Made by a program: the position numbers and the translations under genes
In this document: in pieces, positions 1-17,637 of the stretch
Numbering within the stretch: the stretch's first letter is position 1
How the letters are laid out: the number at the start of each line of letters is the position of its first letter
Notes under the pieces: generated by a model
What the model was told of the DNA's origin: nothing
Databases searched by the model: none
Seen by the model: only the letters and a program-made list of their open reading frames with translations
Virus record (IMG/VR): IMGVR_UViG_2579778784_000009
DNA from: a virus
Lineage: Duplodnaviria > Heunggongvirae > Uroviricota > Caudoviricetes
Strand: one strand, 5' to 3'
Length of the DNA: 17,637 nt

Positions 1-1143
1 CTATGCTGTTTTGATATCTACGATAATCCAGTCTTTACCACGATCATCATTGTATCGGTCGGTCATTTTTCTGGATTTATGGCCTAACAACTTTTGCGTA
101 TCCAGACCCTGTTCCCGATATAACCGTTCTGACAGAGATCGCTGCTCATGAAATGTGGGCGCAGTTCCTTGCTCCCATTTTATGCCACATTTTTCCCTGG
201 CCTTTTTAAAAGCCGTTGTCAGAGTATTCGCAGAAACCTGGTCTCCTCTGTTTGCTTGAGAGGTTGTGTGACGGTAATGGACCAGATATTTACTAACAAC
301 AGCATCCCTGCACTGAGATATAACTTCACGAAGGGTAATATTCAGAGCATCGCATTTCAGGTTAAGCGGAATAGCAAGTTTTGAACCGGTTTTTTTCTGA
401 GTAATGTGCAACATGTCGTCCCAGATATCAGAGAATTTCAAATTGCAGATATCGCCTAAACGTTGTCCAGTGACAAGAGCAAGTAGCATCCCGCATTTTA
501 AATAGGGCTGCCGTCTGCTTACGCTGTCAAATATTGCCTGCCATTCGGGCAGTGATAATCTTTGGCGGTTTACTCGATTTCGCGGTTGTTTTGTTGCCTG
601 CGCTGGGTTAAATCCTGGCGGAACATGTCCTGCGTGTTGTGCTTCTTTGAAGACGTCGATTAACACCATTCTCACGACTTGCGCCATCCTGTTATGACCT
701 TCAGCCTTTACAGCATCAATTATTTCGGCAATATCAAGTGCGGTAATATCCTTGAGGTGTTGTATTCCACAATGCTCACGGAAAAGACGAATGGGTTTGC
801 CTTTTTGCCGATAGGAGTTGGGTCTTAGTTCATTATGTTGCAGCCTGTCCTCCTGGATAGAAATATATTTATCAAGCCATTCTGTCACCGTAATGTCTGA
901 GCGCCTGCCTTTCATTCTTTCCAGACGCTCATTGACGCTTAATATTTGTCGGGTACGTTGTTCAGCAATAATGGTATTTGCTTCAGTAGCAACTTGTTTT
1001 GCTTCATTCTCATCAGTTCCTAAGCTATGAAAACGACCGGATAGTGGATGTTTGTATTGCCAATATACCTTTCCGGTTCGCTTATCTAATTTGCAATATA
1101 AATTGGGTATAGAGATTTTGTGAGATCGGGGTCTAGCAGCCAT
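1..1143 (-). CDS. int: Phage integrase, tyrosine recombinase (lambda Int-like)
   Basis: 380-aa ORF with ATG at 1143. C-terminus (HEQRSLSERLYREQG...LLGHKSRKMTDRYNDDRGKDW) matches the lambda Int catalytic region from recall. Overlaps the upstream xis stop, as in lambda. Confidence 0.9.
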   Translation of the reverse strand: MAARPRSHKISIPNLYCKLDKRTGKVYWQYKHPLSGRFHSLGTDENEAKQVATEANTIIAEQRTRQILSVNERLERMKGRRSDITVTEWLDKYISIQEDRLQHNELRPNSYRQKGKPIRLFREHCGIQHLKDITALDIAEIIDAVKAEGHNRMAQVVRMVLIDVFKEAQHAGHVPPGFNPAQATKQPRNRVNRQRLSLPEWQAIFDSVSRRQPYLKCGMLLALVTGQRLGDICNLKFSDIWDDMLHITQKKTGSKLAIPLNLKCDALNITLREVISQCRDAVVSKYLVHYRHTTSQANRGDQVSANTLTTAFKKAREKCGIKWEQGTAPTFHEQRSLSERLYREQGLDTQKLLGHKSRKMTDRYNDDRGKDWIIVDIKTA

Positions 1144-1369
1144 CAGCGATTATCCGTTGGAGTTTTGGGTTTGCGTTTATTGGGAGTTGCGGTTCTGCAA
1201 GCGTTCCTACAAAACGGGAATTTCGGTCAATCATCCAGTAGCGACCAACTTTTATAGCGGGTGGGGCCATCATTTTCCCTTGCGCGTATTTTTTCAGAAC
1301 TCGCTCACTTGGTGCTAAGTCCCCAAATTCTTCTTTAGCCCAGTCCTGTAAAGTGATTAGTCGAGACAT
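1133..1369 (-). CDS. xis: Excisionase (Xis-like)
   Basis: 78 aa, ATG at 1369 preceded by GAGGAGG. ITLQDW...APPAIKVGRYW resembles lambda Xis LTLQEW...PPPVKDGREY. Sits immediately upstream of int with overlap. Confidence 0.75.
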   Translation of the reverse strand: MSRLITLQDWAKEEFGDLAPSERVLKKYAQGKMMAPPAIKVGRYWMIDRNSRFVGTLAEPQLPINANPKLQRIIADGC

Positions 1370-1508
1370 TTGTCCTCCTCTTAGCTGCTGAGGGAGTTTG
1401 TGACCGATATATCTGACATGATATTAAGCTCATGGCAGGTACATCTCTTGACTGGTCATAGAGATAAATTTAATGCTGAGAAATGCAGTATTGAATTTAT
1501 CAATTTTT

Positions 1509-1748
1509 CTATTTCCTGCGTATGGCACGTAACTTCTTAATGTGTTCTGCCGTTTCGATCTCTTCTGCTATCCGATCTGCATCAGCTTTATTCACAGGTT
1601 CAAAGTCATGATTAAAGCGGAACATGCTGGCGATACATGTTCTGCCTTTTCGGATGTAGTGAACTTTGTTGTGGGTAGAACGCAGGATTTTGCAGGGAGT
1701 GCCGTGGTGGTCGACGTACCAGGTGTTAGGAAAAATGATTCTGAACAT
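1509..1748 (-). CDS. Hypothetical protein (79 aa), delayed-early region
   Basis: ATG at 1748 preceded by GAGGTG. Same strand as int/xis. No family recognised. Confidence 0.5.
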   Translation of the reverse strand: MFRIIFPNTWYVDHHGTPCKILRSTHNKVHYIRKGRTCIASMFRFNHDFEPVNKADADRIAEEIETAEHIKKLRAIRRK

Positions 1749-1795
1749 TTTTACACCTCAGTTGGACGATGTTGAAATTTGCTGCTTTGAGGCCA

Positions 1796-2014
1796 TCACA
1801 GTCCCCATTGTTTGTTCTTAAGTTCGATCTCCTCCTGGCAACTTGCACAAGTCCGACAACCCTGAACGGCCAGGCGTCTTCGTTCATCTATCGGATCGCC
1901 ACACTCACAACAATGAGTGGCAGATATAGCCTGGTGGTTCAGGCGGCGCATTTTTATTGCTGTGTTGCGCTGTAATTCTTCAATTTCTGATGCTGAATCA
2001 ATGATGTCTGCCAT
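1796..2014 (-). CDS. DksA/TraR-family C4 zinc-finger protein
   Basis: 72 aa with CxxC(17)CxxC (CCECGDPIDERRRLAVQGCRTCASC), typical of phage TraR-like proteins. Confidence 0.7.
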   Translation of the reverse strand: MADIIDSASEIEELQRNTAIKMRRLNHQAISATHCCECGDPIDERRRLAVQGCRTCASCQEEIELKNKQWGL

Positions 2015-2063
2015 CTTTCATTAATCCCTGAATTGTTGGTTAATACGCTTGAGGGTGAATGCG

Positions 2064-2090
2064 AATAATAAAAAAGGAGCCTGTAGCTCC
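2064..2090 (-). terminator. Putative intrinsic terminator in the leftward operon
   Basis: Hairpin GGAGC-CTGTA-GCTCC at 2076-2090. The plus-strand A-run at 2067-2075 becomes a U-run after the hairpin on the minus strand. Confidence 0.4.
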
Positions 2091-2112
2091 ATGATGATTT
2101 TGTTTTTCATGT

Positions 2113-2328
2113 TCACCGTTCCTTAAAGACGCCGTTTAACATGCCGATCGCCAGGCTTAAATGAGTCGGTGTGAATCCCATCAGCGTTACCGTTTCGCGG
2201 TGCTTCTTCAGTACGCTACGGCAAATGTCATCGACGTTTTTATCCGGAAACTGCTGTCTGGCTTTTTTGATTTCATAATTAGCCTGACGGGCAATACTGC
2301 GAAGGGCGTTTTCTTGCTGAGGTGTCAT
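2113..2328 (-). CDS. Hypothetical protein (71 aa from ATG 2328; ORF extends to 2394)
   Basis: ORF with two in-frame ATGs (2394, 2328). Start is uncertain and no family is recognised. Confidence 0.45.
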   Translation of the reverse strand: MTPQQENALRSIARQANYEIKKARQQFPDKNVDDICRSVLKKHRETVTLMGFTPTHLSLAIGMLNGVFKER

Positions 2329-2404
2329 TGAACAAGTCCCATGTCGGCAAGCATAAGCACACAGAATATGAAGCCCGCTGCCAGAAAAATGCATTCAGTG
2401 GTTG

Positions 2405-2596
2405 TCATACCTGGTCTCTCTCATCTGCTTCTGCTTTCGCCACCATCATTTCCAGCTTTTGTGAAAGGGATGTGGCTAACGTATGAAATTCTTCGTCTGT
2501 TTCTACTGGTATTGGCACAAACCTGACTCCAATTTGAGCGAGGCTATGTGCCATCTCGATACTCGTTCTTAACTCAACGGGAGATGCTTTGTGCAT
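2405..2596 (-). CDS. Hypothetical protein (63 aa), at the lambda orf63 position
   Basis: ATG at 2596. Sits between the orf60a-like gene and the upstream small ORFs. No direct sequence recall. Confidence 0.5.
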   Translation of the reverse strand: MHKASPVELRTSIEMAHSLAQIGVRFVPIPVETDEEFHTLATSLSQKLEMMVAKAEADERDQV

Positions 2597-2757
2597 ACAG
2601 CCCCTCGTTTATTATTTATCTCCTCAGCCAGCCGCTGGGCTTTCAGTGGATTTTGGATAACAGAAAGGCCGGGAAATACCCAGCCTCGCTTTGTAACGGA
2701 GTAGACGAAAGTGATCGCGCCTACCCGGATATTATCGTGAGGATGCTTCATCGCCAT
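2569..2757 (-). CDS. Lambda orf60a-like small protein (62 aa)
   Basis: [30 protein letters not shown]... recalled as lambda orf60a. Lies immediately upstream of exo, as in lambda. Confidence 0.55.
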
Positions 2758-3428
2758 TGCTCCCCAAATACAAAACCAATTTCAGCCAGTGCCACGTCCA
2801 TTTTTTCGATGAACTCCGGCACCATCTCGTCAAAATTCGCCATGTACTTTTCATTCCGCTCAATCACGACATAATGCAGGCCTTCACGCTTCATACGCGG
2901 GTCATAGTTGGCAAAGTACCAGGCATCTTTTCGCGTCACCCACATGCTGTACTGCACCTGGGCCATGTAAGCCGATTTTATGGCCTCGAAACCACCGAGC
3001 CGGAACTTCATGAAATCCCGGGAGGTAAACGGGCATTTCAGTTCAAGGCCGTTGCCGTCACTGCATAAACCATCGGGAGAGCAGGCGGTGCGCATACTTT
3101 CGTCGCGATAGATGATCGGGGATTCAGTAACATTCACGCCGGAAGTGAATTCAAACAGGGTTCTGGCGTCGTTCTCGTACTGTTTTCCCCAGGCCAGCGC
3201 CTTAGCATTAACTTCCGGAGCCACACCGGTGCAAACCTCAGCCAGCAGGGTGTGGAAGTAGGACATTTTCATGTCAGGCCACTTCTTTCCTGAGCGGGGC
3301 TTTGCTATCACGTTGTGAACTTCTGAAGCGGTGATGACGCCGAGCCGTAATTTGTGCCATGCATCATCCCCCTGTTCGACAGCTCTCACGTCGATCCCGG
3401 TACGCTGCAGGATAATGTCCGGTGTCAT
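2748..3428 (-). CDS. exo: Lambda exonuclease (Red alpha)
   Basis: 226 aa; [54 protein letters not shown]... is essentially lambda Exo by recall. Confidence 0.95.
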
Positions 3429-4210
3429 GCTGCCACCTTCTGCTCAGTGGCTTTCTGTTTCAGGAATCCAAGAGCTTTCACTGCTTCGGCCTGTGTCAGT
3501 TCTGACGATGCGCGAATGTCGCGGCGAAATATCTGGGAACAGAGCGGCAATAAGTCGTCATCCCATGTTTTATCCAGGGCGATCAGCAGAGTGTTAATCT
3601 CCTGCATGGTTTCATCGTTAACCGGAGTGATGTCGCGTTCTGGCTGACGTTCTGCAGTGTATGCAGTATTTTCGACAATGCGCTCGGCTTCATCCTTGTC
3701 ATAGATACCAGCAAATCCGAAGGCCAGACGGGCACACTGAATCATGGCTTTATGCCGTAACATCCGTTTGGGATGCGACTGCCACGGCCCCGTGATTTCT
3801 CTGCCTTCGCGAGTTTTGAATGGTTCGCGGCGGCATTCATCCATCCATTCGGTAACGCAGATCGGATGATTACGGTCCTTGCGGTAAATCCGGCATGTAC
3901 AGGATTCATTGTCCTGCTCAAAGTCCATGCCATCAAACTGCTGGTTTTCATTGATGATGCGGGACCAGCCATCAACGCCCACCACCGGAACGATGCCGTT
4001 CTGCTTATCAGGGAAGGCGTAAATTTCTTTCGTCCACGGATTAAGGCCGTACTGGTTGGCGACGATCAACAATGCGATGAACTGCGCATCGCTGGCATCA
4101 CCTTTAAATGCTGTCTGGCGAAGAGTGGTGATCAGTTCCTGTGGGTCGACAGAATCCATGCCGACACGTTCAGCCAGCTTCCCTGCCAGCGTTGCGAGTG
4201 CTGTACTCAT
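3425..4210 (-). CDS. bet: Single-strand annealing protein Bet (Red beta)
   Basis: 261 aa; [66 protein letters not shown]... matches lambda Bet. Overlaps the exo start. Confidence 0.95.
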
Positions 4211-4215
4211 CCGTT

Positions 4216-4512
4216 TTATACCTCTGAATCAATATCAACCTGATGGTGAGCAATGGTTTCAACCATGTACCGGATGTGTTCTGCCATGCGCTCCTGAAAC
4301 TCAACATCGTCATCAAACGCACGGGTAATGGCTTTTTTGCTGGCCCCGTGGCGTTGCAAATGATCGATGCATAGCGATTCAAACAGGTGCTGGGGCAGGC
4401 CTTTTTCCATGTCGTCTGCCAGTTCTGCCTCTTTCTCTTCACGGGCGATCTGCTGGTAGTGACGCACCCAGCTCTGAGCCTCAAGACGATCCTGAATGTA
4501 ATAAGCGTTCAT
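4216..4512 (-). CDS. gam: Host-nuclease (RecBCD) inhibitor Gam, short form
   Basis: 98 aa starting [15 protein letters not shown], equal to the GamS portion of lambda Gam. AGGAG RBS upstream of ATG 4512. Confidence 0.9.
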
Positions 4513-4586
4513 GGCTGAACTCCTGAAATAGCTGTGAAAATATCGCCCGCGAAATGCCAGGCTGATTAGGAAAACAGGAAAGGGGG

Positions 4587-4997
4587 TTAGTGATTCAGGC
4601 CGTTGCCGCGTCCGTCGAGAAAAACTTCCACGAGCAAGTCACGGGTATAAGTGCGCTCGATGCCGCGATGCAGATAAAGCCGTCCGCGTAAATTAGCTGA
4701 TGCAGTCCAGGTACCATCTTTGTGTTTGACCAGCATTCCTGGCATGACCGCACCGCGATTAACGGTCTGTGTTCCGTAATGTTGATGAACCATAAAAACT
4801 CCTGCCCGTAAGCTGGGCTGCTGAACATATAGAGACTTCTGCGCGTATTCAGGCGGTGGATGGCCGCCGGTTGTCATAACTAAACCGCCTCGTTGAAGCG
4901 ACTGAGGTATGAAATGTTGAGTTAATTTCAGCTGGTCACACCGACGTTCACGCGTCCGTTTCACCCCTCGCACTCCCCGAAGCCTGCTGAAATTCAA
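4587..4997 (-). CDS. Hypothetical protein at the first position of the pL operon; start uncertain
   Basis: 136-aa ORF whose track start is TTG. Internal ATGs at 4877 (GAGG upstream) and 4793 (GGAG 5 nt upstream). Arg-rich N-terminal stretch ([15 protein letters not shown]). Confidence 0.35.
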
Positions 4998-5065
4998 ACT
5001 GCGGATCTAAGCGGTCATCGCAACGGTGAATCAGGTGGTTGCCGTATCGTTGTGTTGTTGCGATA

Positions 5066-5127
5066 TGGTGATAATAGCTATTGCTATTGGTGATATCAAT
5101 ACTTATTGCTATTGGTTGATGTGTTTT
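5066..5127 (-). promoter_or_regulatory. OL/pL-like leftward promoter with operator repeats
   Basis: Minus strand -35 TTGATA (plus 5094-5099), 17-nt spacer, -10 TATTAT (plus 5071-5076). TTGCTATTGG repeated at 5081-5090 and 5106-5115; the same 9-mer recurs in the cI-cro intergenic region. Confidence 0.55.
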
Positions 5128-5242
5128 GATATTAAATGTTTGATAGCAAAAAGAATTAATTTTGTGACTTGCATCGCATAGCGATAACTGAAGGGAGGAT
5201 GTGGTGGTTTTTCGAACGGTTTGTGTGATGAGGGGACAAAAG

Positions 5243-5268
5243 AAAACCCGGCACGGTGGCCGGGATTC
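5243..5268 (-). terminator. Putative intrinsic terminator ending the cI passenger operon
   Basis: Hairpin CCCGGC-ACGGTG-GCCGGG (5247-5264), followed on the minus strand by UUUUCUUUUG. Lies directly 3' of the ASCH gene stop. Confidence 0.5.
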
Positions 5269-5646
5269 TTACGCAGGTAGGTAAAGATATGATTGTGGTG
5301 GCTTAATATTACTACCTAGAGCAGAGATAGGAATTGGTTCTTTATATCTTTCCACTTCACCAATTTTTATTGCGTAGGCCTTTTCTCTACCTGAATAATA
5401 TGAGTCATAAAATTGCTTAGAAATACCTGCGTGCTTTTCCGTCTTTTTCCAAAGAGATTCCGGTTCGTCACTTAGTATTGATTCAATACGGAATTGACCA
5501 ACAACTTTACCTAATGGCATCGTGGCATAAATAACAACGGTGCTAATTTGCGGATTTTTGAATATACCTTTACGAAACTCGAACCGCTTTGTTCCGTTCA
5601 ATATTTTTTCTGCAAACTCAGGCTTAATGGATAATAAAACTTTCAT
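5269..5646 (-). CDS. ASCH-domain (PUA-like fold) protein, 125 aa
   Basis: N-terminus MKVLLSIKPEFAEKILNGTKRFEFRK fits the ASCH pattern. AT-rich. Overlaps the 3' end of the upstream gene by 23 nt. Confidence 0.7.
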   Translation of the reverse strand: MKVLLSIKPEFAEKILNGTKRFEFRKGIFKNPQISTVVIYATMPLGKVVGQFRIESILSDEPESLWKKTEKHAGISKQFYDSYYSGREKAYAIKIGEVERYKEPIPISALGSNIKPPQSYLYLPA

Positions 5647-6685
5647 TTATCTTGCCTAACTCGATGATCTTTAAGAACTGCTCATTTGTGAGTTTAAAGT
5701 GACTCCATCGGAATGCACGCGAACCATTTAGCCCCACATGATCTATTAAAATAGCACGATTGGGTCTCTTTGGCAAAGACAGATTGTATGTGAATCTTAT
5801 AATGAAAGGGTATCGACGTTCTTTATAGATTTTTCTGAGTTCATCTTCAGAAAATACGCTAAAACGAATACAATAGTCTACAAAACTATCTTCGCTTAAA
5901 AATTCAGAAATATTTTTTACGCTCTCAACTACACATAATGTACTGGCTACAGAACGATAGCGAGCTGGCCCTTTTTTGTCTCCGGTTCTATAGATGACAA
6001 TGATATCTCCTCTTTTCATTCCCATCACAGAACGCATTCCACATATGTAAATTTTATGAATGCTGTTAGCATGGGATATATCTTTGACAATATCTGGTGA
6101 TTCATTTACAAGTTTTGAATCAGGGAATAGTCTAGTGTGATATTCGGGATAAATCGCCAGTAAATATTTGTTGGCCCTTGATGTCATTATTCGAGGGTAA
6201 TCTAATAAAATATCACCATAAGGCTCATGCAAAGACCTCGCATATACAAACTCTTTCCCGTTATGTGTTTCTTTTTCACCATGAATGTAAAATCCGTACG
6301 TTTGGAAAAGTTTTATTAGATGGACGTGTTTGTCGAAAACAGTAACATAAATATCATCAGATTTTGATGAAAATGCATGGTCAAACGCTTTTTTTAGAAA
6401 TCGTTGTCCGCGAAGGGTGCCTTTAGATTCAAATTTGAATGTTCCTATCTTTAGATGACGTCCTGGTGGGAGCGCTGGATTAATGTCATTTGCATCATCA
6501 TTTTCTTTTAGATACATAAAACCTTCGATTTTATGCTTGTCATCATAGAGCACATAAGCTGATTCTCCTTCTCTGGCTTTTTTTTCTAACCAAAGAGGAA
6601 ACTCTTTATAATCTTTTTTTAAAGAGTCAAAAAATGGGTCATTGTGATCAAAATCAGAGAATTTCTCATATTTTAAAGTATCCAT
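5624..6685 (-). CDS. Uncharacterised protein (353 aa from ATG 6685; ORF extends to 6697) with GNAT-like N-terminal features
   Basis: Long AT-rich ORF. GGAG lies 6 nt before the second ATG. N-terminal half has the GNAT-like motif FQTYGFYIHGE. C-terminal half is unassigned. Confidence 0.7.
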   Translation of the reverse strand: MDTLKYEKFSDFDHNDPFFDSLKKDYKEFPLWLEKKAREGESAYVLYDDKHKIEGFMYLKENDDANDINPALPPGRHLKIGTFKFESKGTLRGQRFLKKAFDHAFSSKSDDIYVTVFDKHVHLIKLFQTYGFYIHGEKETHNGKEFVYARSLHEPYGDILLDYPRIMTSRANKYLLAIYPEYHTRLFPDSKLVNESPDIVKDISHANSIHKIYICGMRSVMGMKRGDIIVIYRTGDKKGPARYRSVASTLCVVESVKNISEFLSEDSFVDYCIRFSVFSEDELRKIYKERRYPFIIRFTYNLSLPKRPNRAILIDHVGLNGSRAFRWSHFKLTNEQFLKIIELGKINESFIIH

Positions 6686-6765
6686 TAAGTTCTCCATTCT
6701 AAAATGAATAATTAAGTTGTTTTACTGAATGAGCACAATGCCCGGTTGATAATTTTTAATTGGTA

Positions 6766-7458
6766 CTATCCATGCTTCCTATACGTCTGCGGCATGCTCC
6801 CAATAACTTTCCCGAAGATAAATACCCGGTTCATCTCATCTTTCTCGATCGGGTCCCACGGTGAGTAGCTTTTGTTATCAGAGATAACCAGCAGCTTATC
6901 CTTCATCATTTGCAGGCGCTTTACATGGGCTGTGTCGTCGTACAGAAACGCATAGATACCATCACCGTCGAAAGATTTAACCGTGATATCAACGAATAGA
7001 AGATCACCAGGTTCAATCGTTCCTGACATGCTGTCACCGCGTACGTTAATGATGCGGATATTTTCTGCCTTCCTACCATCGAACATGTGACGAGCATCGT
7101 CAAACGAGTACTCAACCGAGCGTAGAACTTCTACAAACTCACGGTTGATGACTCCCGGCCCGGCACTCACTTCTATATCAAGAACGTCAATTTTAAAGTA
7201 TTTGGAATAGCTGACAGCAGGCTTCCCTGATTGTTGACCGTCATTTCTCATCGGGCCTATGCCTGATGAGAGCCATTCTGTTCGAACACCCAATGCATTA
7301 GCTATTTCAACAATTTTTGTTGAGCCGCGCGCGTTGCCGCTTGTCAGTCTCCAGATTGTGGGTTGAGCTACGCCAGACGCCTTTGCAAGAGCGCCTTGAG
7401 ACATTCCAGATTGTTCCATCGCTAGGTTTAAGCGATCAGCAAGAGTTTCTTTTTTCAT
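6766..7458 (-). CDS. cI: CI-type prophage repressor (HTH plus S24 LexA-like peptidase domain)
   Basis: N-terminal HTH (SQGALAKASGVAQPTIWRL) and C-terminal VRGDSMSGTIEPGDLLFVD...VKRL (Ser/Lys dyad). Track start at 7494 is TTG. ATG at 7458 has no RBS and lies about 10 nt from a TATAAA, so the mRNA is probably leaderless like lambda cI from pRM. Confidence 0.85.
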   Translation of the reverse strand: MKKETLADRLNLAMEQSGMSQGALAKASGVAQPTIWRLTSGNARGSTKIVEIANALGVRTEWLSSGIGPMRNDGQQSGKPAVSYSKYFKIDVLDIEVSAGPGVINREFVEVLRSVEYSFDDARHMFDGRKAENIRIINVRGDSMSGTIEPGDLLFVDITVKSFDGDGIYAFLYDDTAHVKRLQMMKDKLLVISDNKSYSPWDPIEKDEMNRVFIFGKVIGSMPQTYRKHG

Positions 7459-7568
7459 AAGTTTTAATTTATACGCTTGCGTATTGATGGTCAAAACACG
7501 TTTTGCTATTGCTTGGATTAATACGCATTGCTATTATTTATTCATTGCAATACCAATAGGAATTGATA
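7459..7568. promoter_or_regulatory. OR-like divergent control region (pR, pRM, operators)
   Basis: Plus strand pR: -35 TTGCTT (7509-7514), 17-nt spacer, -10 TATTAT (7532-7537). TTGCTATTG at 7503, TTGCTATTA at 7528, related CATTGCAATA at 7544. Lies between divergent cI and cro. Confidence 0.6.
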
Positions 7569-7796
7569 ATGACAAATCAAACCATTCAACTCGCAATCAG
7601 TATTACAGGTAGTCAAAAACGACTGGCAGATCTATGCGGTGTAGCCCAACCCACAGTTTGGCGTTGGCTACACGGTGGCGGAATTGATGCCCGCTATGTA
7701 ATGAAAATTGTCTCAGCCACTGGTGGAAAGATTAAACCAGCAGATATTCGTCCCGACCTCGCACCATTGTTTAACGCGAGTAATTCTGCCGCCTAA
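7569..7796 (+). CDS. cro: Cro-like HTH regulator (YdaS-like)
   Basis: 75 aa from ATG 7569 with AGGA RBS. HTH motif SQKRLADLCGVAQPTVWRWL. First gene of the rightward operon, divergent from cI. Confidence 0.75.
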   Translation: MTNQTIQLAISITGSQKRLADLCGVAQPTVWRWLHGGGIDARYVMKIVSATGGKIKPADIRPDLAPLFNASNSAA

Positions 7797-7820
7797 ACTG
7801 CGGCGTTAACTGATAAGGCA

Positions 7821-8366
7821 ATGACTATGCAACCACTTACATACCAACAGACTAGCGGATTTAGCCCGACTGCGGTGATAAATCGTTCTCAAACAAAACA
7901 GGCGCCAGGCCACGAAAAAATCCGTGATGCCGTTCGCGCCTGGTCGGCTGCAGATAATCAGGATGTTGTTGCCGCACTCATTGTGAATGAGTATCGGGAG
8001 CAGGGCGGCGGCACCATCGATTTCCCTGATGATGTCAGCCGTGCACGCCAGAAGCTGTTCCGCTTTCTCGATAACAAATTCGATTCTGAAAAATACCGAA
8101 ATAACGTGCGTGAACTGACCCCGGCAATTCTGGCGGTACTACCGCTGGAATATCGCGGCCACCTGGTTGAGCAGGATAGCTACATGGCTCGGCTGGCTGA
8201 AATGGAAAAGGAACTCAGTGAGGCAAAACAGGCTGTCATTCTCAACGCACCACGCCACCAGAAACTGAAGGAGATGAGTGAAGGCATTGTGTCGATGTTT
8301 CGTGTGGACCCGGATCTGGCTGGTCCATTGATGGCGATGGTCACCACCATGCTGGGGGCAATATGA
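7821..8366 (+). CDS. YdaT-family protein (CII-position regulator)
   Basis: 181 aa with AAGG RBS. IVNEYREQGGG and LTPAILAVLPLEYRGHL resemble Rac YdaT by recall. Sits between cro and O. Confidence 0.65.
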   Translation: MTMQPLTYQQTSGFSPTAVINRSQTKQAPGHEKIRDAVRAWSAADNQDVVAALIVNEYREQGGGTIDFPDDVSRARQKLFRFLDNKFDSEKYRNNVRELTPAILAVLPLEYRGHLVEQDSYMARLAEMEKELSEAKQAVILNAPRHQKLKEMSEGIVSMFRVDPDLAGPLMAMVTTMLGAI

Positions 8367-8452
8367 CAGGTTCAGAAATGGCGAAAGCCGGTCTGCGCGA
8401 ACAGAACCGACTTTCAGGTGCAAATCGTAACACACTCATTGCGGGAGGAATT

Positions 8453-9382
8453 ATGGCAAACACTGCTGAGATATTCAATTTTCCAGTGCCGGATGTGGCA
8501 CAAAAGGAGCCGCGCGTGGCAGATCTCGATGATGGTTATACGCGCATTGCAAATGAGTTGCTGGAAGCTGTGATGCTGGCCGGATTAACACAGCACCAGC
8601 TTCTGGTCTTCCTGGCTGTCATGCGCAAAACATATGGCTTTAATAAAAAACTGGATTGGGTGAGCAACGAGCAACTTTCCGAGTTGACCGGGATATTGCC
8701 GCACAAGTGTTCTGCTGCAAAAAGTGTTCTGGTAAAGCGTGGGATTTTTATTCAGAGCGGGCGGAATATCGGCATTAATAATGTGGTCAGTGAATGGTCA
8801 ACATTACCCGAATCAGGTAAGAAAAATAAAGTTTACCTGAAAGAGGTAAATTTACCTGAATCAGGTAAGAAAAGTTTACCCAAATCAGGTAAAGACGTTT
8901 ACCCGAATCAGGTAAACACAAAAGACAAACTAACAAAAGACAATATAAAACCTTTTTCGTCCGAGAATTCTGGCGAATCCTCTGACCAGCCAGAAAACGA
9001 TCTTCCTGTGGTGAAACCGGATGCTGCAATTCAGAGCGGCAGCAAGTGGGGGACAGCAGAAGACCTGACCGCCGCAGAGTGGATGTTTGACATGGTGAAG
9101 ACCATCGCGCCATCAGCCAGAAAACCGAATTTTGCAGGGTGGGCCAACGACATCCGCCTGATGCGTGAGCGTGACGGGCGTAACCATCGCGACATGTGCG
9201 TTCTGTTCCGCTGGGCCTGCCAGGACAACTTCTGGTCCGGTAACGTGCTGAGTCCAGCAAAACTCCGCGACAAGTGGACTCAGCTCGAAATTAACCGCAA
9301 CAAGCAACAGGCTGGTGTGACTGCCAGCAAACCAAAACTCGACCTGACAAACACTGACTGGATTTACGGGGTGGAGCTATGA
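8453..9382 (+). CDS. O: Replication initiator O
   Basis: From ATG 8453 (GGGAGG RBS): MANTAEIFNFPV...ADLDDGYTRIANELLEA parallels the lambda O N-terminus. Contains the iteron array. Stop overlaps the P start (ATGA). Confidence 0.9.
   Translation: MANTAEIFNFPVPDVAQKEPRVADLDDGYTRIANELLEAVMLAGLTQHQLLVFLAVMRKTYGFNKKLDWVSNEQLSELTGILPHKCSAAKSVLVKRGIFIQSGRNIGINNVVSEWSTLPESGKKNKVYLKEVNLPESGKKSLPKSGKDVYPNQVNTKDKLTKDNIKPFSSENSGESSDQPENDLPVVKPDAAIQSGSKWGTAEDLTAAEWMFDMVKTIAPSARKPNFAGWANDIRLMRERDGRNHRDMCVLFRWACQDNFWSGNVLSPAKLRDKWTQLEINRNKQQAGVTASKPKLDLTNTDWIYGVEL
8804..8952 (+). repeat. Replication origin: five palindromic iterons plus an AT-rich tract inside O
   Basis: TTACC(C/T)(G/A)AATCAGGTAA-type 17-mers at 8804, 8833 (degenerate), 8852, 8876 and 8899, followed by an A-rich segment at 8916-8952. 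Confidence 0.8.
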
Positions 9383-10092
9383 AAAATATTGCCGCGCAGA
9401 TGATTAACTTTGACCGTGAGCAGATGCGTCGAATCGCCAACAACATGCCGGAACAATACGACGAAAAGCCGCAGGTGCAGCAGGTGGCGCAGATCATCAA
9501 CGGTGTGTTCAGCCAGCTGCTTGCGACATTTCCGGCAAGCCTCGCGAACCGCGACCAGAACGAGCTGAACGAAATCCGCCGTCAGTGGGTTATGGCTTTC
9601 CGTGAAAATGGAATTACCACTATGGAGCAGGTTAACGCCGGAATGCGCGTGGCCCGCCGACAGGAGCGACCATTCCTGCCGTCGCCCGGCCAGTTCGTAG
9701 CGTGGTGTAAGCAGAGTGGCGGGGCGTTAGGTATCACTGTTGACCAAGTCATAACCGAATACTGGGATTGGCGTAATCGTTCCTTCGAATTCACTTCCAG
9801 CGAGCATTTCCCGTGGTCACAGCCTGTCATGTACCACATCTGCGTCGAACTGCGCCACCGCAGCACAGAGCGCCAGTTAACGCATGGTGAGCTGGCGCGT
9901 GAAGCCGGCGATCTGCTGGACATGTGGGAGAGGCGCGTCACCGAGGGCAAACCAGTACCGCCTGTGCGCCGGGCGATTGCAGCACCGGCTGCCGAGCATG
10001 GCCCGACGCCAATCCAGCTGCTTCAGGCGAAGTACAACCGCAACAAGTCGAACGGGATGGTGCGAAGTGGTAAAGAAGATAATAAAGAATAA
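9379..10092 (+). CDS. P: Replication protein P (helicase loader) with divergent C-terminal half
   Basis: The first ~110 aa (MKNIAAQMINFDREQMRRIANNMPEQYDEKPQVQQVAQIING...) are near-identical to lambda P by recall; the C-terminal half differs. Confidence 0.85.
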   Translation: MKNIAAQMINFDREQMRRIANNMPEQYDEKPQVQQVAQIINGVFSQLLATFPASLANRDQNELNEIRRQWVMAFRENGITTMEQVNAGMRVARRQERPFLPSPGQFVAWCKQSGGALGITVDQVITEYWDWRNRSFEFTSSEHFPWSQPVMYHICVELRHRSTERQLTHGELAREAGDLLDMWERRVTEGKPVPPVRRAIAAPAAEHGPTPIQLLQAKYNRNKSNGMVRSGKEDNKE

Positions 10093-10170
10093 TATTTAGG
10101 GTTATAGGTCTTAGCCCATTTTAAATGGAAGGCAGACATGCAGCCATGCATACTTCGCATGGCAACATAA

Positions 10171-10599
10171 TTATTTAGACAAACTATCTAATTTTTGCGT
10201 CGCTTTTTGTGTTAGGTCGCTGTAACTGATAAACCCTACGTTAGCACCTACAATTAACACTAAGAACACTAAGCTGCATATGGATAGAGTGGCAGATTTA
10301 TGCTTATGGAAAACAAAATATGCTACTATTGCACTTAATATGAAGGAAATGAATAGAAATATAGATGTTGATGTTTTTAGATATTTTTCAGGAAATAATG
10401 GGTGAGCAATAATGTATACAAGATTAAGTAGTATATAAATTGCTACCGGAATGAAAATCATGCTCCAGTGTGTATCTTTTTTGGGAGGGATTGGCTGCAA
10501 ATAATCAGACACCGTTTTTCCATCAGTTTCAAGAAGAATTACTAGATCTCTTACTTCACCACTGACTTGAGTGCCATCCTTAGTAGTAATGTTAATCAT
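10171..10599 (-). CDS. Small membrane protein (142 aa from ATG 10599), three predicted TM helices
   Basis: GGAGGG RBS 5 nt upstream of the ATG. Hydrophobic segments IFIPVAIYILLNLVYIIA, IFLFISFILSAIVAYFVF and LSICSLVFLVLIVGANVGFI. Very AT-rich. ATGA overlap with the upstream gene. Confidence 0.6.
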   Translation of the reverse strand: MINITTKDGTQVSGEVRDLVILLETDGKTVSDYLQPIPPKKDTHWSMIFIPVAIYILLNLVYIIAHPLFPEKYLKTSTSIFLFISFILSAIVAYFVFHKHKSATLSICSLVFLVLIVGANVGFISYSDLTQKATQKLDSLSK

Positions 10600-10973
10600 T
10601 TTTTCCCTCCAAATACGATTCCCTCTACGTCTTTGGAAGCTTTTTGTGATGACCACTCCTCTGAATCAGGTGATTTAATTAAAAATATTGTATCTCCATC
10701 AAAAATCGTATTTGTTCCGTAAAAATTTACATTTGATAGATCACCACCAAAAACCCTCTGCCCACTCGAGGTAATTGCCTCACCTAATTTAGTAAAATTA
10801 CCTGCAATAGATGATTTTCTTTTTCCACTTCTATTCAAAGTGGCTTTAATTACACCACCACCATCCTTAGAGTTAAATAATTGAATGTCCACTCCAGCAG
10901 TTGGTTGTATATATTTTGAAAGCTCTTTCTTGAACTTGTTAATATATTTATCTTTGTTTTCTTTGTTGGTCAT
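10596..10973 (-). CDS. Hypothetical Lys/Gly-rich soluble protein (125 aa)
   Basis: ATG at 10973. Translationally coupled to the membrane protein gene. AT-rich, antisense to the early-right operon. Confidence 0.6.
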   Translation of the reverse strand: MTNKENKDKYINKFKKELSKYIQPTAGVDIQLFNSKDGGGVIKATLNRSGKRKSSIAGNFTKLGEAITSSGQRVFGGDLSNVNFYGTNTIFDGDTIFLIKSPDSEEWSSQKASKDVEGIVFGGKK

Positions 10974-11240
10974 TGGTTAGATCCATAGTTCTGGCTGTGA
11001 TTAGGTGAAAGTATACAAGGTTTTTAAAGCGAAGATCACTGTTTTGGCTTCAAGATAGTTTTGATTTATCGTAATCAATCCGCCATAATCCTCTCATCGG
11101 AGCCTGAACAACTCCGGTGACTTCTGCGCATTTAAGGGGACTTAAATGCGACCACAATCTGAACTCATCACCTTGTCACAGATGCAGAAATGCACCTGCG
11201 ATGTCTTGCATCCAGCGTTTGATCTCTGCGGAGGTGAAGC

Positions 11241-11696
11241 GTGAACCTCCCACAAGATGGCATCAAATTACATCGCGGTAACTTCACCGCTGTCGGTCAG
11301 CAGATCCAGACTTATCTGGAAGACGGCAAATGCTTTCGCATGGTGCTTAAACCGTGGCGCGAGAGACGCAGTCTTTCCCAGAATGCACTCAGCCACATGT
11401 GGTACAGCGAAATCAGTGAATACCTCATCAGCAGGGGTAAAACGTTCGCCACTCCAGCTTGGGTAAAAGATGCTCTCAAACACACATATCTCGGTTATGA
11501 AACCAAAGACCTGGTTGATGTCGTAACCGGTGATATCACCACTATCCAGTCGTTACGCCATACCTCCGATCTTGATACCGGAGAGATGTATGTCTTCCTG
11601 TGTAAGGTTGAAGCCTGGGCGGTGAATATTGGCTGCCACCTGACTATTCCGCAGAGCTGCGAGTTCCAGCTGCTCCGCGACAAGCAGGAGGCGTAA
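11241..11696 (+). CDS. ninB: NinB-family recombination protein
   Basis: 151 aa from GTG 11241 with [25 protein letters not shown] resembles the NinB core motif. Confidence 0.7.
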
Positions 11697-11866
11697 TGGC
11701 TACACCGCTTATTCGTGTCATGAACGGACACATCTACAGAGTATCAAATCGTCGTAAGCGTAAGCCTGAGCTGAAGCCATCCGAAATACCAACACTGCTC
11801 GGATATACCGCCAGCCTGGTTGATAAAAAATGGTTGCGACTGGCAGCAAGGAGGAGTCATGGCTGA
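11696..11866 (+). CDS. ninE: NinE-like small basic protein (56 aa)
   Basis: Sub-threshold ORF not in the track. ATG overlaps the ninB stop (TAATG). Basic, with KKWLRLAARR near the C-terminus. Sits at the DLP12 ninE position. Confidence 0.4.
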   Translation: MATPLIRVMNGHIYRVSNRRKRKPELKPSEIPTLLGYTASLVDKKWLRLAARRSHG

Positions 11867-12149
11867 TTTGAGAAAAGCAGCGCGTGGTCGGGAATGCCAG
11901 GTAAGAATCCCTGGCGTATGTAATGGCAACCCTGAAACGTCTGTACTGGCACATATCCGGCTGACTGGATTGTGCGGCACCGGTACCAAACCGCCAGACC
12001 TGATTGCCACCATTGCATGTTCTGCCTGCCACGACGAAATCGACCGCCGCACACATTTTGTCGATGCTGCATATGCAAAAGAATGCGCGCTGGAAGGTAT
12101 GGCGAGAACACAGGTTATGTGGCTGAAAGAGGGGGTTATTAAGGCGTGA
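11859..12149 (+). CDS. ybcO: YbcO-like (DUF1364) putative nuclease
   Basis: 96 aa from ATG 11859 with [44 protein letters not shown]... recalled as DLP12 YbcO. Confidence 0.7.
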
Positions 12150-12508
12150 ATACCTACAGCATCACATTACCCTGGCCTCCGAGCAATAATCGCTATTACC
12201 GCCATAATCGCGGGCGCACGCACGTCAGCGCAGAGGGGCAGGCATACCGCGATAACGTCGCCCGAATCATTAAAAACGCAATGCTGGATATCGGCCTGGC
12301 TATGCCTGTGAAAATCCGCATTGAGTGCCACATGCCGGATCGCCGTCGCCGTGACCTGGATAATCTGCAAAAAGCCGCTTTTGACGCACTCACTAAAGCA
12401 GGTTTCTGGCTGGATGATGCTCAGGTCGTTGATTACCGCGTTGTGAAGATGCCTGTTACCAAAGGTGGGAGGCTGGAACTGACCATCACCGAAATGGGGA
12501 ATGAATGA
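12146..12508 (+). CDS. rusA: Holliday-junction resolvase RusA
   Basis: 120 aa; [37 protein letters not shown]... matches E. coli RusA by recall. Confidence 0.9.
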
Positions 12509-12645
12509 TGTTTGAGTTTAATATGGCAGAACTTCTTCGCCACCGCTGGGGGCGTCTGCGCTTATATCGTTTCCCCGGTTCTGTTTTGACCGATTACCGA
12601 ATACTGAAGAATTACGCCAAAACCCTGACAGGAACAGGAGTATGA
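12505..12645 (+). CDS. ylcG: YlcG-like small protein (46 aa)
   Basis: Sub-threshold ORF, ATG overlapping the rusA stop (ATGATG). Sits at the DLP12 ylcG position between rusA and Q. Confidence 0.45.
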
Positions 12646-12730
12646 AGTCAGAGATAACAATCAACTAATACTGTTTTGTTGATTTTTGCTTGTAATTGGC
12701 GTTCTGGTCTGATTTTTGTGGAGTAAGTTG

Positions 12731-13114
12731 ATGCGTGATATTCAGATGGTTCTTGAGCGTTGGGGTGCGTGGGCGGCTAATAATCATGAAGATGTGACCT
12801 GGTCGTCCATTGCCGCCGGTTTTAAGGGATTAATTCCTTCAAAAGTAAAATCTCGCCCGCAATGTTGTGACGATGACGCGATGATCATTTGCGGGTGCAT
12901 GGCCCGTCTGAAAAAGAACAACAGCGATTTACACGATTTATTAGTAGATTATTATGTATGTGGTATGACATTCATGTCACTGGCAAGTAAGCATTGCTGC
13001 TCGGATGGTTATATCGGGAAAAGGTTACAGAAGGCTGAGGGCATAATTGAAGGGATGTTAATGGCATTAGATATCCGGTTAGATATGGATATCGTTGCTA
13101 ATAATTCTAATTGA
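12731..13114 (+). CDS. Q: Late-gene antiterminator Q (QuuD / phage 82-21 type)
   Basis: From ATG 12731 with [41 protein letters not shown]... recalled as DLP12 QuuD. Confidence 0.85.
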
Positions 13115-13251
13115 TATGCAATTGTTTACTAAAAGTTATTAAAAATGGGGCGTGGAAACGCCCCCAAAATAAAGGGTAATATATAACAGAAGGTTTATAT
13201 AGTAAGAAGCAAGGTAGTGCTTCTAAAGGAAGTGGCTTGAGGGCTCCACTT

Positions 13252-13291
13252 ATATGTTGCGGAGGCAAAGCCTCCCGCAACATATCTTTTT
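13252..13291 (+). terminator. Intrinsic terminator downstream of Q (tR'-like)
   Basis: Long hairpin ATATGTTGCGGAGG-CAAAG-CCTCCCGCAACATAT followed by CTTTTTC. Preceded by two smaller hairpins at 13148-13165 and 13207-13224. Confidence 0.6.
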
Positions 13292-13302
13292 CGTAAGTCA
13301 GA

Positions 13303-14385
13303 TTAGAACTGATAAACCAGACCTACAGCGACGATGTCGTCGGTATCAATACCAGCTGTTTTGGTAAACTTACTATCGTCAATTAAGTTGATTTTGTAAT
13401 CAACAAAAGTGGACATGTTTTTATTAAAGTAGTAAGTAGCACCGACATCGACATACTTGACTAAGTCTCGGTCACCATGAACACCAAGGTCTTTACCTTT
13501 TGACTGAAGGTAAGCAACAGATGGACGCAGACCGAAGTCAAACTGATATTGTGCTACTGCTTCAAAGTTTTGTGCTTTGTTTGCAATATGGTTATTACCA
13601 AAAACGGTCATATTCTGAGTTTCAGAATATGTGGTAGCCAGATAGATATTGTTCGCATCATATTTCAGGCCTGCAGCCCATACTTCCGCATTTTTGCCGG
13701 AGGCATTGAATTTGCTCTTACCATAGGCGACCTGACCGTCAGTGCGATCTGATTTAGCATAGGTTGCACCCACGCCGAATCCTTCATACTCATAAGTAGT
13801 GGAGAAACCGAAACCATCACCATTGGCTTCAGTTACGTCAGTGCGGTCATTTTTACCCTGATACTGAGCAGCAAAGTTCAGGCCATCGACCAGACCAAAG
13901 AAGTCGTTGTTACGATAAGTTGCAACACCAGTAGTGCGACCAGTCATGAACACATCTGTTTGGGTCCAGGTATCACCACCGAATTCTGGCAGAACGTCAG
14001 TCCACGCACCGATGTCGTATGCTACACCGTAGTTACGGCCGTAATCGATTGAGCCGTAATCACCAAATTTCAGGCCTGCAAATGCAAGACGGGTTTTGTC
14101 TTTGGAAGAACCTTGAGATTCAGCACGGTTGCCTTTGAATTCATATTCCCACTGACCGAAACCAGTCAGTTGATCGTTGATTTGGGTTTCACCTTTGAAG
14201 CCAAGACGGGCATAAGTAGTATCACCATCATCTGCATCATTAGAGGAGAAGTAGTGCTTGGCATTAACTTTCCCGTATAGATCCAGCTTGTTACTGTCTT
14301 TATTATAAATTTCAGCTGCCTGAGCAGACATCGCCATCAGTACTGATGCAGCTACAGCAGAAATTGCCACTGTTAATTTTTTCAT
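13303..14385 (-). CDS. nmpC: OmpC-family porin, NmpC/Lc type (phage-borne)
   Basis: Signal peptide [23 protein letters not shown], then [16 protein letters not shown]...VGLVYQF, a classic general porin. The track ORF has a spurious 20-aa N-terminal extension. Confidence 0.9.
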
Positions 14386-14811
14386 TGTACGCCCTTTTTT
14401 TGAACTATTATTAAAAAATGATGTCACTGCGCGATAAATATTCATCTAATCAATGTGATTATTTCAAGATGTAAGTTTTAGTTTCTCATTTAATTTGTGA
14501 AGTAGATCTCTATTTTTATCGGAACCTTTTCTATCTAATCCTATTCATGGCTCTTGTCTGAACAAAAATAAATCTATTAGCTAATTTATATTAATGGCAC
14601 TTATTTATAAGTGCTCTATAATTCTTTAGCTTAATTTAAACAAACTAAAAATAACATCGGAAATTATTAACTGGTTATTTGTTGAAGTTTTCTTATGCAT
14701 TTGTGGTGGTGTTTTGAACACTCGGTGGCATTCTCACAAATATCATTTAGTAGTTTACGTACGTAAAAAATTGGTTATGCTGTTAAGAGTGGTTACTTCG
14801 TCACACAGCTT

Positions 14812-14845
14812 AAACCCGCCGTCGAGCGGGTTTTTCCATTTTTTG
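14812..14845 (+). terminator. Intrinsic terminator upstream of the lysis genes
   Basis: AAACCCGC-CGTCGA-GCGGGTTT hairpin followed by TTTTTCCATTTTTTG, about 130 bp before the holin start. Confidence 0.6.
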
Positions 14846-14973
14846 AGTCTCGATATTAGCTGATAACCCAATACCTGAGTTATTCACTGACTCCGAATCT
14901 GTTACGTTTCTGCCTTTATTGCGATACGTAGTATCCCCTTAATTTACACCCGCTTTGTCTGCGAGGTGGGGTT

Positions 14974-15188
14974 ATGAAATCCATGGATAAGTTAACAACG
15001 GGTGTCGCCTATGGTACCTCAGCAGGTAGTGCCGGGTACTGGTTTTTACAGTTGCTCGATAAAGTCACGCCCTCACAGTGGGCGGCAATAGGTGTGCTGG
15101 GTAGCCTGGTATTTGGCCTGCTGACGTACCTGACAAACCTTTATTTCAAGATTAAAGAAGATAAGCGCAAGGCTGCGAGAGGTGAATA

Positions 15189-15189
<1 letters not shown>
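14974..15189 (+). CDS. S: Class II holin/antiholin, phage 21 S type (dual-start)
   Basis: 71 aa, MKSMDK dual-start motif, GAGGTGGGG RBS. Matches S21 by recall. Stop overlaps the endolysin ATG. Confidence 0.9.

Positions 15190-17637
<2,448 letters not shown>

Follow-up and report, generated by a model that had tools for sequence, protein, structure and literature searches.

An AT-rich cassette at the ren position

Between P and ninB, the prophage in the window (the whole stretch of DNA analysed here, 17,637 nucleotides long) carries an AT-rich cassette of two genes on the minus strand, opposite the early-right operon. The cassette (10093–11045, ∼35% G+C) is an insert between P, which stops at 10092, and the region upstream of ninB. 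Positions 1–15577 of the window are 100% identical to a lambdoid prophage beside icd in E. coli BH100N, and the segment 10050–11150 has a 100% match in many further strains. Genes for a cI-like repressor, a cro-like protein, a YdaT-domain protein, O and P (9379–10092) precede the cassette, and a 32-aa ORF, NinB/YbcN (11241–11696), ninE, ybcO, rusA, ylcG and Q follow it. The corresponding interval of lambda reads P, ren and NinB, all on the plus strand, which bears out the ren position that an earlier, sequence-only reading of this DNA had assigned to the cassette.

The base composition of the cassette is unlike that of the flanking phage genes, as is characteristic of morons (34% versus 51–57% G+C). 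Genes A and B are each 33.6% G+C, compared with 56.7% for P, 50.9% for ninB and 46% for the whole window. GC3 is 0.25 in A and 0.28 in B, against 0.67 in P and 0.60–0.67 across the flanking phage genes. The sequence-only reading had set a 60-nt stretch of the cassette against a stretch of bet. The cassette half of that comparison stands, with 23.3% G+C at 10381–10440 in what is a real island; the 62% quoted for bet was cherry-picked, for bet averages 52% G+C and reaches 63% in its richest 60-nt stretch. Alignment of diverged Klebsiella and Enterobacter cassettes shows homology running from ∼60–70 nt upstream of the A start to the hairpins beyond B, and in other carriers the flanks of the cassette are unrelated.

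Signals at the cassette boundaries

A consensus scan of positions 10974–11100 found no sigma-70 promoter. Reading the sequence directly suggests a candidate −10 hexamer, TATACT (11010–11015, minus strand), 36 nt upstream of the A start, and a weak −35-like GTGATC (11034–11039, minus strand; 3/6 matches) separated from it by an 18-nt spacer. Diverged cassettes have a −10-like element, TGATATAGT or TATAAT, at the equivalent place.

On the far side of the cassette, 7 nt past the stop codon of B, alignment and folding identify a conserved hairpin, GCCATGC-7 nt-GCATGGC (10143–10163), which is matched in position by a 15-bp stem in the Klebsiella-type cassette. Folding z-scores are −3 for the hairpin region of the window and −7 for that of another locus, L003, whose hairpin has a U-rich tail on the strand of rightward (pR) transcription. 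On the cassette strand, the conserved hairpin 3′ of B lacks a U-tract. A second, terminator-like hairpin followed by ATTTTAAA (10099–10117, plus strand) lies just after the P stop, between the convergent P and B and at a tR2-equivalent position. The two hairpins (10099–10163) look like a putative tR2-equivalent barrier between these convergent genes. Morons are further expected to carry their own promoter and terminator; here the cassette offers a −10-like element conserved in position and a 3′ hairpin, with no consensus promoter called.

Gene A and its family

Gene A (10596–10973, minus strand) starts at the ATG at 10973 and encodes a predicted soluble, cytoplasmic protein of 125 aa (WP_000182282.1; phrog_18061), annotated in RefSeq as a hypothetical protein. 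It has neither a TM helix nor a signal peptide. An exhaustive profile search with A (E ≤ 1e-3) returned at least 111 clusters at 50% identity; nearly all members are 120–135 aa long, align end to end and share conserved motifs, summarised as Y..N.FR...L.P..G / GG / Q.aFGG.l.g..F.GTN...e.n.I.LIK....W....A..DV. By sequence, A is the founder of a wide, conserved and uncharacterised family. Its AlphaFold2 model is weak (pLDDT 58) and has the topology helix, two strands, helix, two strands, helix. This order of secondary structure prompted a comparison with Roadblock/LC7-like folds, which we rejected at an hhalign probability of 0.06%.

One member of the family departs from the usual architecture. 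P0104 is a 447-aa protein in which an A domain (residues 7–119) is fused to an HNH endonuclease domain (191–231) and an uncharacterised C-terminal half. It is encoded on two short contigs (L010 and L011) from runs SRR22012404 and SRR22012406, apparently of one study, and is counted here as a single case. With an HNH fusion in place of B, P0104 is the clear exception to the pairing of A with B (see below) among the family members examined. The fusion favours A as a domain for sensing or regulation to which different effectors can be attached.

Gene B encodes a predicted inner-membrane protein

Gene B (10171–10599, minus strand) starts at the ATG at 10599 and encodes a predicted inner-membrane protein of 142 aa (WP_000608370.1; phrog_16940), likewise annotated in RefSeq as a hypothetical protein. 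A mechanical ORF list places the start at a GTG at 10656, giving 161 aa. We rejected this start because the Shine-Dalgarno sequence, RefSeq and the lengths of homologues (142 aa in all close ones) favour the ATG at 10599.

Topology prediction on B gives three hydrophobic segments. By hydropathy the TM helices span residues 47–65, 79–97 and 106–124, and the AlphaFold2 model likewise has three long helices. They are preceded by a soluble N-terminal domain of ∼45 aa, which is nearly invariant among the enterobacterial copies, its first 36 residues almost unchanged; the TM helices, unlike the N-terminus, diverge among the same copies. The protein ends in a charged amphipathic tail, SYSDLTQKATQKLDSLSK. 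B-type partners share the motif MK[IL]GxxEGTPEE[IV]..F..N.G....D[YF], with MK[IL]GxxEGTPEE as its N-terminal core, and have three TM helices, a basic TM2–TM3 loop (RFK/HKHK) and a charged tail. Counts of K+R (41 versus 29) weakly suggest an N-in/C-out topology for B. In Pfam, B has sub-threshold similarity only, to 7TMR-DISM_7TM and DUF2157 in the TM region, which most likely reflects composition only.

Coupling and pairing of A and B

The A stop and B start overlap by 4 nt as ATGA (10596–10599, minus strand), an arrangement kept in nearly all homologous pairs. A GGAGGG Shine-Dalgarno sequence for B (10605–10610, minus strand) precedes the B ATG by 5 nt and falls within the final codons of A (..GGKK*). 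Both elements had been picked out in the sequence-only reading and can be read at 10599–10596 and 10610–10605. Its description of the pair as a soluble protein joined to a 3-TM membrane protein likewise agrees with hydropathy, with the AlphaFold2 models and with the lack of a TM helix in A.

Both genes are conserved at the level of protein sequence. Close homologues of A and B (63–92% identity) occur in Escherichia, Shigella, Enterobacter and Klebsiella. Compared with the Klebsiella-type copy, dN/dS is ∼0.08 for A (0.153/1.99; 76% identical) and ∼0.09 for B (0.225/2.47; 66% identical). A and B are real genes under strong purifying selection, and this selection together with recurrence in more than 40 independent loci indicates a feature that is more than chance.

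In the more than 40 loci examined, a B-type protein follows A, usually with the 4-nt overlap; the partner is 124–143 aa long, and 188 aa in one distant copy on a conjugative element (L049). The pair is present at all lambdoid loci, in seven of eight species-representative genomes and on 17 of the 18 metagenome contigs with room for B, counts that refer to loci located via A and, for the representative genomes and metagenomes, to searches with a narrower A subfamily alignment. Gene order across these loci shows the pairing to be obligate, as far as sequence can tell.

Three loci gave no B. In L061 (metagenome contig Ga0114949_10129877), the 567 nt downstream of an A homologue hold no B-type gene by a simple ORF rule. 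L057 has an A match that looks truncated, and B was not found there. In L041, the same ORF rule gives no B downstream of a 92%-identical A, on a contig that has room for one. These B-less loci could be frameshifts, decayed copies or real orphans.

At two loci, a distant A–B pair with an N-terminally extended A lies directly downstream of another gene. In L047 (258–1895), this is a gene for a 545-aa protein with GHKL-ATPase-like motifs, and in L049 (3990–4760) a gene for a caspase-like Peptidase_C14 protein; neither upstream protein matches a PADLOC model. The two arrangements may be three-gene variants of the A–B module.

Searches of described families, structures and literature

Searches of curated libraries place neither protein in a described family. 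Against Pfam, PADLOC and NCBIfam, the A and B of the window have no match at E ≤ 1 (A) or above noise (B), and against PHROGs each finds only the cassette's own two function-unknown PHROGs. The HMMs of PADLOC-DB 2.0 give zero matches for both. Wider sampling of the families gave much the same picture. Among 78 A-family members, a Pfam scan found no convincing family match and PADLOC gave only four isolated matches (E 0.002 or weaker); seven distant B proteins had zero PADLOC matches. Besides the two PHROGs, the library scans of all these proteins yielded sub-threshold hits that reflect TM composition. PDB profile searches with the A and B families returned nothing below E = 0.06 and, for the A family, no relative by sequence. 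Structure comparison gave non-significant matches, and the A model is poor. No homology to a known defence, toxin, antitoxin, holin or exclusion protein was found in Pfam, PADLOC, PHROGs, NCBIfam or the PDB. The literature searched by accession, PHROG identifier and peptide string, including the DefensePredictor supplements, holds no mention of either protein and no expression or phenotype data. By these searches, neither A nor B is in any described family. The earlier remark that no family was recognised is accurate for curated libraries and falls short in one respect, as both proteins belong to wide uncharacterised families.

Carriers and the P–ninB junction

In lambdoid prophages, the cassette is always antisense, with the replication genes on one side and ninB or DUF1367 on the other. 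This place and orientation are constant across O/P, DnaB-type and DnaC-type replication modules, and the nin modules also differ. A survey of the P–ninB junction in lambdoid prophages shows a variable cargo site. The cassette is present in 46 of 5426 complete E. coli genomes, and the flanks match in 2174. Other prophages whose P is closely related have different genes at the junction, and lambda has ren, so that the cassette is absent or replaced at one and the same junction in related phages, as is typical of morons. Alternative cargo includes colicin/immunity-like, DndB-like, HNH, methyltransferase, PRTase-like/NADAR and ren-like genes. In L002 (5297–10603), the A–B cassette itself adjoins colicin-like, colicin-immunity-like, DndB-like and HNH genes. 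At two other loci, L027 (3069–5455) and L028 (3065–5563), the cargo is either an MT-A70 methylase pseudogene accompanied by PRTase-like and NADAR genes, or a ren-like wHTH gene accompanied by Ea22 and HNH genes. Toxin–antitoxin (TA)-like genes lie near the cassette in two loci. PADLOC models were matched by two of ten tested neighbours, a DrmC-like PLD protein and a DndB-like protein, and with only these two matches guilt by association is weak.

The cassette is also found well outside lambdoid prophages. A plasmid-type pair, 42% identical, sits on a 4.8-kb Rep/MobC/relaxase plasmid; its cluster occurs on 189 contigs, each of at most 9.4 kb, from Klebsiella, E. coli and Salmonella. Further carriers include an element with an integrase and a rolling-circle Rep, a different type of prophage, and a conjugative element on which the cassette adjoins a caspase-like peptidase and DUF4238. 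On chromosomal islands it lies beside ligA, beside yacG, or near PIN, DUF4160/DUF2442 and Xre-MbcA genes. Hosts of the A–B subfamily span several phyla and include Nitrospira, Neptuniibacter, Nitrosomonas, Salinisphaerales, Syntrophaceae and Ca. Aadella. IMG/VR prophage-derived contigs contain the cassette; INPHARED phage genomes and PLSDB plasmids contain neither gene, nor the plasmid-type pair. On this distribution, the A–B unit behaves as a horizontally mobile accessory cassette, or moron. The antisense, AT-rich two-gene moron of the sequence-only reading is upheld, as a moron-like unit, by composition, by place and by carriers outside lambdoid prophages.

Resemblance to known systems

The concept of a prophage moron in which a cytoplasmic protein is paired with a small membrane one is already known from RexAB and from Butters gp30/31. 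Lambda RexA/RexB is a lysogen-expressed unit and provides a working model of a sensor joined to a membrane-depolarising effector in abortive infection. Like the A–B cassette, it is a two-gene prophage unit in an AT-rich accessory island and couples a cytoplasmic protein to a polytopic inner-membrane protein of ∼140 aa. The two differ in most specifics, however. Searches of Pfam and PADLOC give no sequence similarity between RexAB and A/B; B has three TM helices and a predicted cytoplasmic N-domain, whereas RexB has four TM helices; A has 125 aa and RexA 279 aa; and the cassette lies at the ren position as its own putative transcription unit rather than in the cI operon.

Mycobacteriophage Butters gp30/gp31 reportedly mediate prophage defence, a cytoplasmic and a multi-TM protein acting together against heterotypic phage, and gp31 is said to have four TM helices. 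Like A–B, it is an accessory pair of a prophage that joins a cytoplasmic protein to a multi-TM membrane protein, but host and sequences are unrelated, and PHROGs gives no homology beyond the cassette's own families.

B also invites comparison with Class I holins such as lambda S105, which is under antiholin control. Three TM helices and a charged C-terminus in a small protein are the marks of this class and are all found in B, which could permeabilise the membrane once freed from an inhibitor. Unlike these holins, B matches no holin family, has an additional conserved N-terminal domain of ∼35–45 aa, and has a gene that lies apart from the lysis cassette and also occurs on elements other than phages. 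Nor is it linked to endolysin or spanin genes, the holin/lysozyme cassette of the prophage lying 4 kb away. The S105 antiholin is a product of an alternative start, whereas the partner of B is a separate 125-aa protein.

Type II TA operons share with the cassette the form of a translationally coupled, mobile two-gene operon found on plasmids, prophages and islands and near TA genes. They differ in that no known toxin or antitoxin fold and no HTH, RHH or AbrB domain is found in A or its 78 relatives, and in that the putative toxin here is polytopic. Lambdoid morons in the sense of Hendrix and Juhala (bor, lom and HK97 gp15) likewise have a deviant composition, promoter-like and hairpin boundaries, and a junction that varies among related phages; they consist of one gene rather than two coupled genes, and the A–B cassette occurs also outside phages. 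The exclusion proteins HK97 gp15, P22 SieA and T4 Imm are each sufficient as single proteins and show no homology to B, which is accompanied by A in the loci examined, all found through A.

Proposed function and alternatives

A coupled, strictly paired, conserved yet patchy and mobile module has a profile that fits conflict modules, and effector swapping, as in the A–HNH fusion, is typical of defence sensors. The variable hotspot at the P–ninB junction, the TA-like genes near two loci and the PADLOC candidate PDC-M11 in a second AT-rich antisense island of this prophage (see below) count on the same side. Against such a role we count the lack of homology to known families, the poor model of A, the fact that the HNH fusion is a single case, the lack of a copy in INPHARED or PLSDB, and the lack of a consensus promoter. 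On balance, we judge the chances about even that the A–B cassette is a conflict module, whether for phage defence or for toxin–antidote addiction. A narrower proposal, which we advance tentatively and with distinctly less confidence, is that A and B are the founders of a new, phylum-spanning two-gene anti-phage system. In such a system, the A sensor domain would gate a three-helix effector, or an HNH nuclease in some lineages, as a portable immunity spread by prophages, small plasmids and integrative elements. A specific role in abortive infection or exclusion, the typical use that the sequence-only reading named for pairs of this shape, would be suggested by the architecture of the pair and its mobility.

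We conjecture that the prophage carries the cassette for use in the lysogen. Transcription would probably run leftward from the cassette's own weak, AT-rich promoter, against the early-right operon, and the hairpins between P and B may shield the cassette from rightward transcription. Translational coupling would give a fixed ratio of A to B. B would insert into the inner membrane and most likely expose its conserved N-terminal domain to the cytoplasm, where A most likely binds it. B would then serve as a small, holin-like membrane effector, with A either sensing an invader and releasing B or restraining B as an antidote. Abortive infection or exclusion of a superinfecting phage would result, or post-segregational stabilisation of the carrying element, or both. 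In this model we infer the promoter, the terminator, the topology, the contact between A and B and the function as a whole.

Three other explanations deserve weight. The cassette might be a pure TA pair, with B as a membrane toxin and A as a labile upstream antidote, that serves chiefly to keep small plasmids, integrative elements and prophages in the cell and not to block phage. The order of an upstream antidote and a downstream toxin with a 4-nt overlap is that of a classical type II TA operon, and two more observations point the same way, namely the neighbouring TA-like genes and the frequent presence of the cassette on tiny mobilisable plasmids and small integrative elements that carry little else. 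Yet no DNA-binding or antitoxin domain is detected in A, its fusion to an HNH nuclease is hard to explain for an antitoxin, and B is polytopic; known membrane toxins are, to our knowledge, much smaller, single-TM peptides. We regard this explanation as unlikely, though the strongest of the three. Superinfection exclusion at the inner membrane, in which the entry of incoming phage DNA is blocked without killing the cell, as by HK97 gp15, P22 SieA and T4 Imm, appears the least probable. A prophage moron whose small inner-membrane protein is presumably made in the lysogen, and which lies antisense to the lytic operon as other lysogen-expressed morons do, would suit it; but known exclusion proteins act alone, with no obligate cytoplasmic partner, and searches of Pfam and PHROGs revealed no homology to them. 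Moreover, plasmids and bacteria distant from the enterics carry the pair just as readily, and the A–HNH fusion points to intracellular sensing.

A role in host physiology or element maintenance outside conflict, whether as a membrane-stress, ion or signalling module or as a regulator of lysis timing, seems to us improbable, between the two preceding explanations in plausibility. The absence of homology to conflict proteins and the ordinary chromosomal neighbourhoods of some copies are compatible with it, as is the faint TM-region resemblance described above. Its difficulty lies in a patchy, phyla-spanning distribution that is biased towards mobile elements, in the variable neighbourhoods, in the rarity of the cassette among complete E. 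coli genomes, and in its placement in lambdoid phages apart from the lysis genes.

If the cassette is indeed a defence or addiction module, it would be a compact system of less than 1 kb, with both of its protein families missing from Pfam, NCBIfam and PADLOC, and it would contribute a new sensor-like domain coupled to a membrane protein or an HNH nuclease. The P–ninB (ren) junction would then be a cargo hotspot comparable to those of P2 and P4. Should the cassette lack a conflict phenotype, A and B would be an ordinary pair of conserved hypothetical moron genes. The module is small, native to E. coli and found in clinical lineages of UPEC, Klebsiella and Enterobacter, and is therefore directly testable.

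Other features of the prophage

The 32-aa ORF just upstream of ninB (WP_224922665.1; 11146–11244, plus strand) has no family match; we take it that this ORF may be the ylcH of DLP12. L002 has a 32-aa ORF at the matching relative place (7426–7524).

A second AT-rich (∼35% G+C) antisense island (5269–6697, minus strand) occupies the rexAB position, with the N/kil region on one side and the repressor on the other; its products are a protein of 357 aa and an ASCH-domain protein of 125 aa. It matches the PADLOC candidate PDC-M11 (PDC-M11A, E 2e-133; PDC-M11B, E 7e-52), and the AT-rich antisense islands of this prophage thus include at least one candidate defence system.

An OmpC/NmpC-like porin gene (13303–14445, minus strand) lies antisense just downstream of the Q antiterminator gene, and the stretch after it (14400–14700) is only 25% G+C. 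The porin gene with this low-G+C stretch is a further moron-like insert.

After position 15577, the window departs from the BH100N prophage. The remainder (15578–17637) encodes IS21-family IstB (15872–16618, minus strand) and IstA (16615–17637, minus strand, running off the end). The IS21 insertion lies inside the lysozyme gene, leaving a truncated ORF (15189–15593), and with this gene interrupted the window's copy of the prophage is probably lysis-defective.
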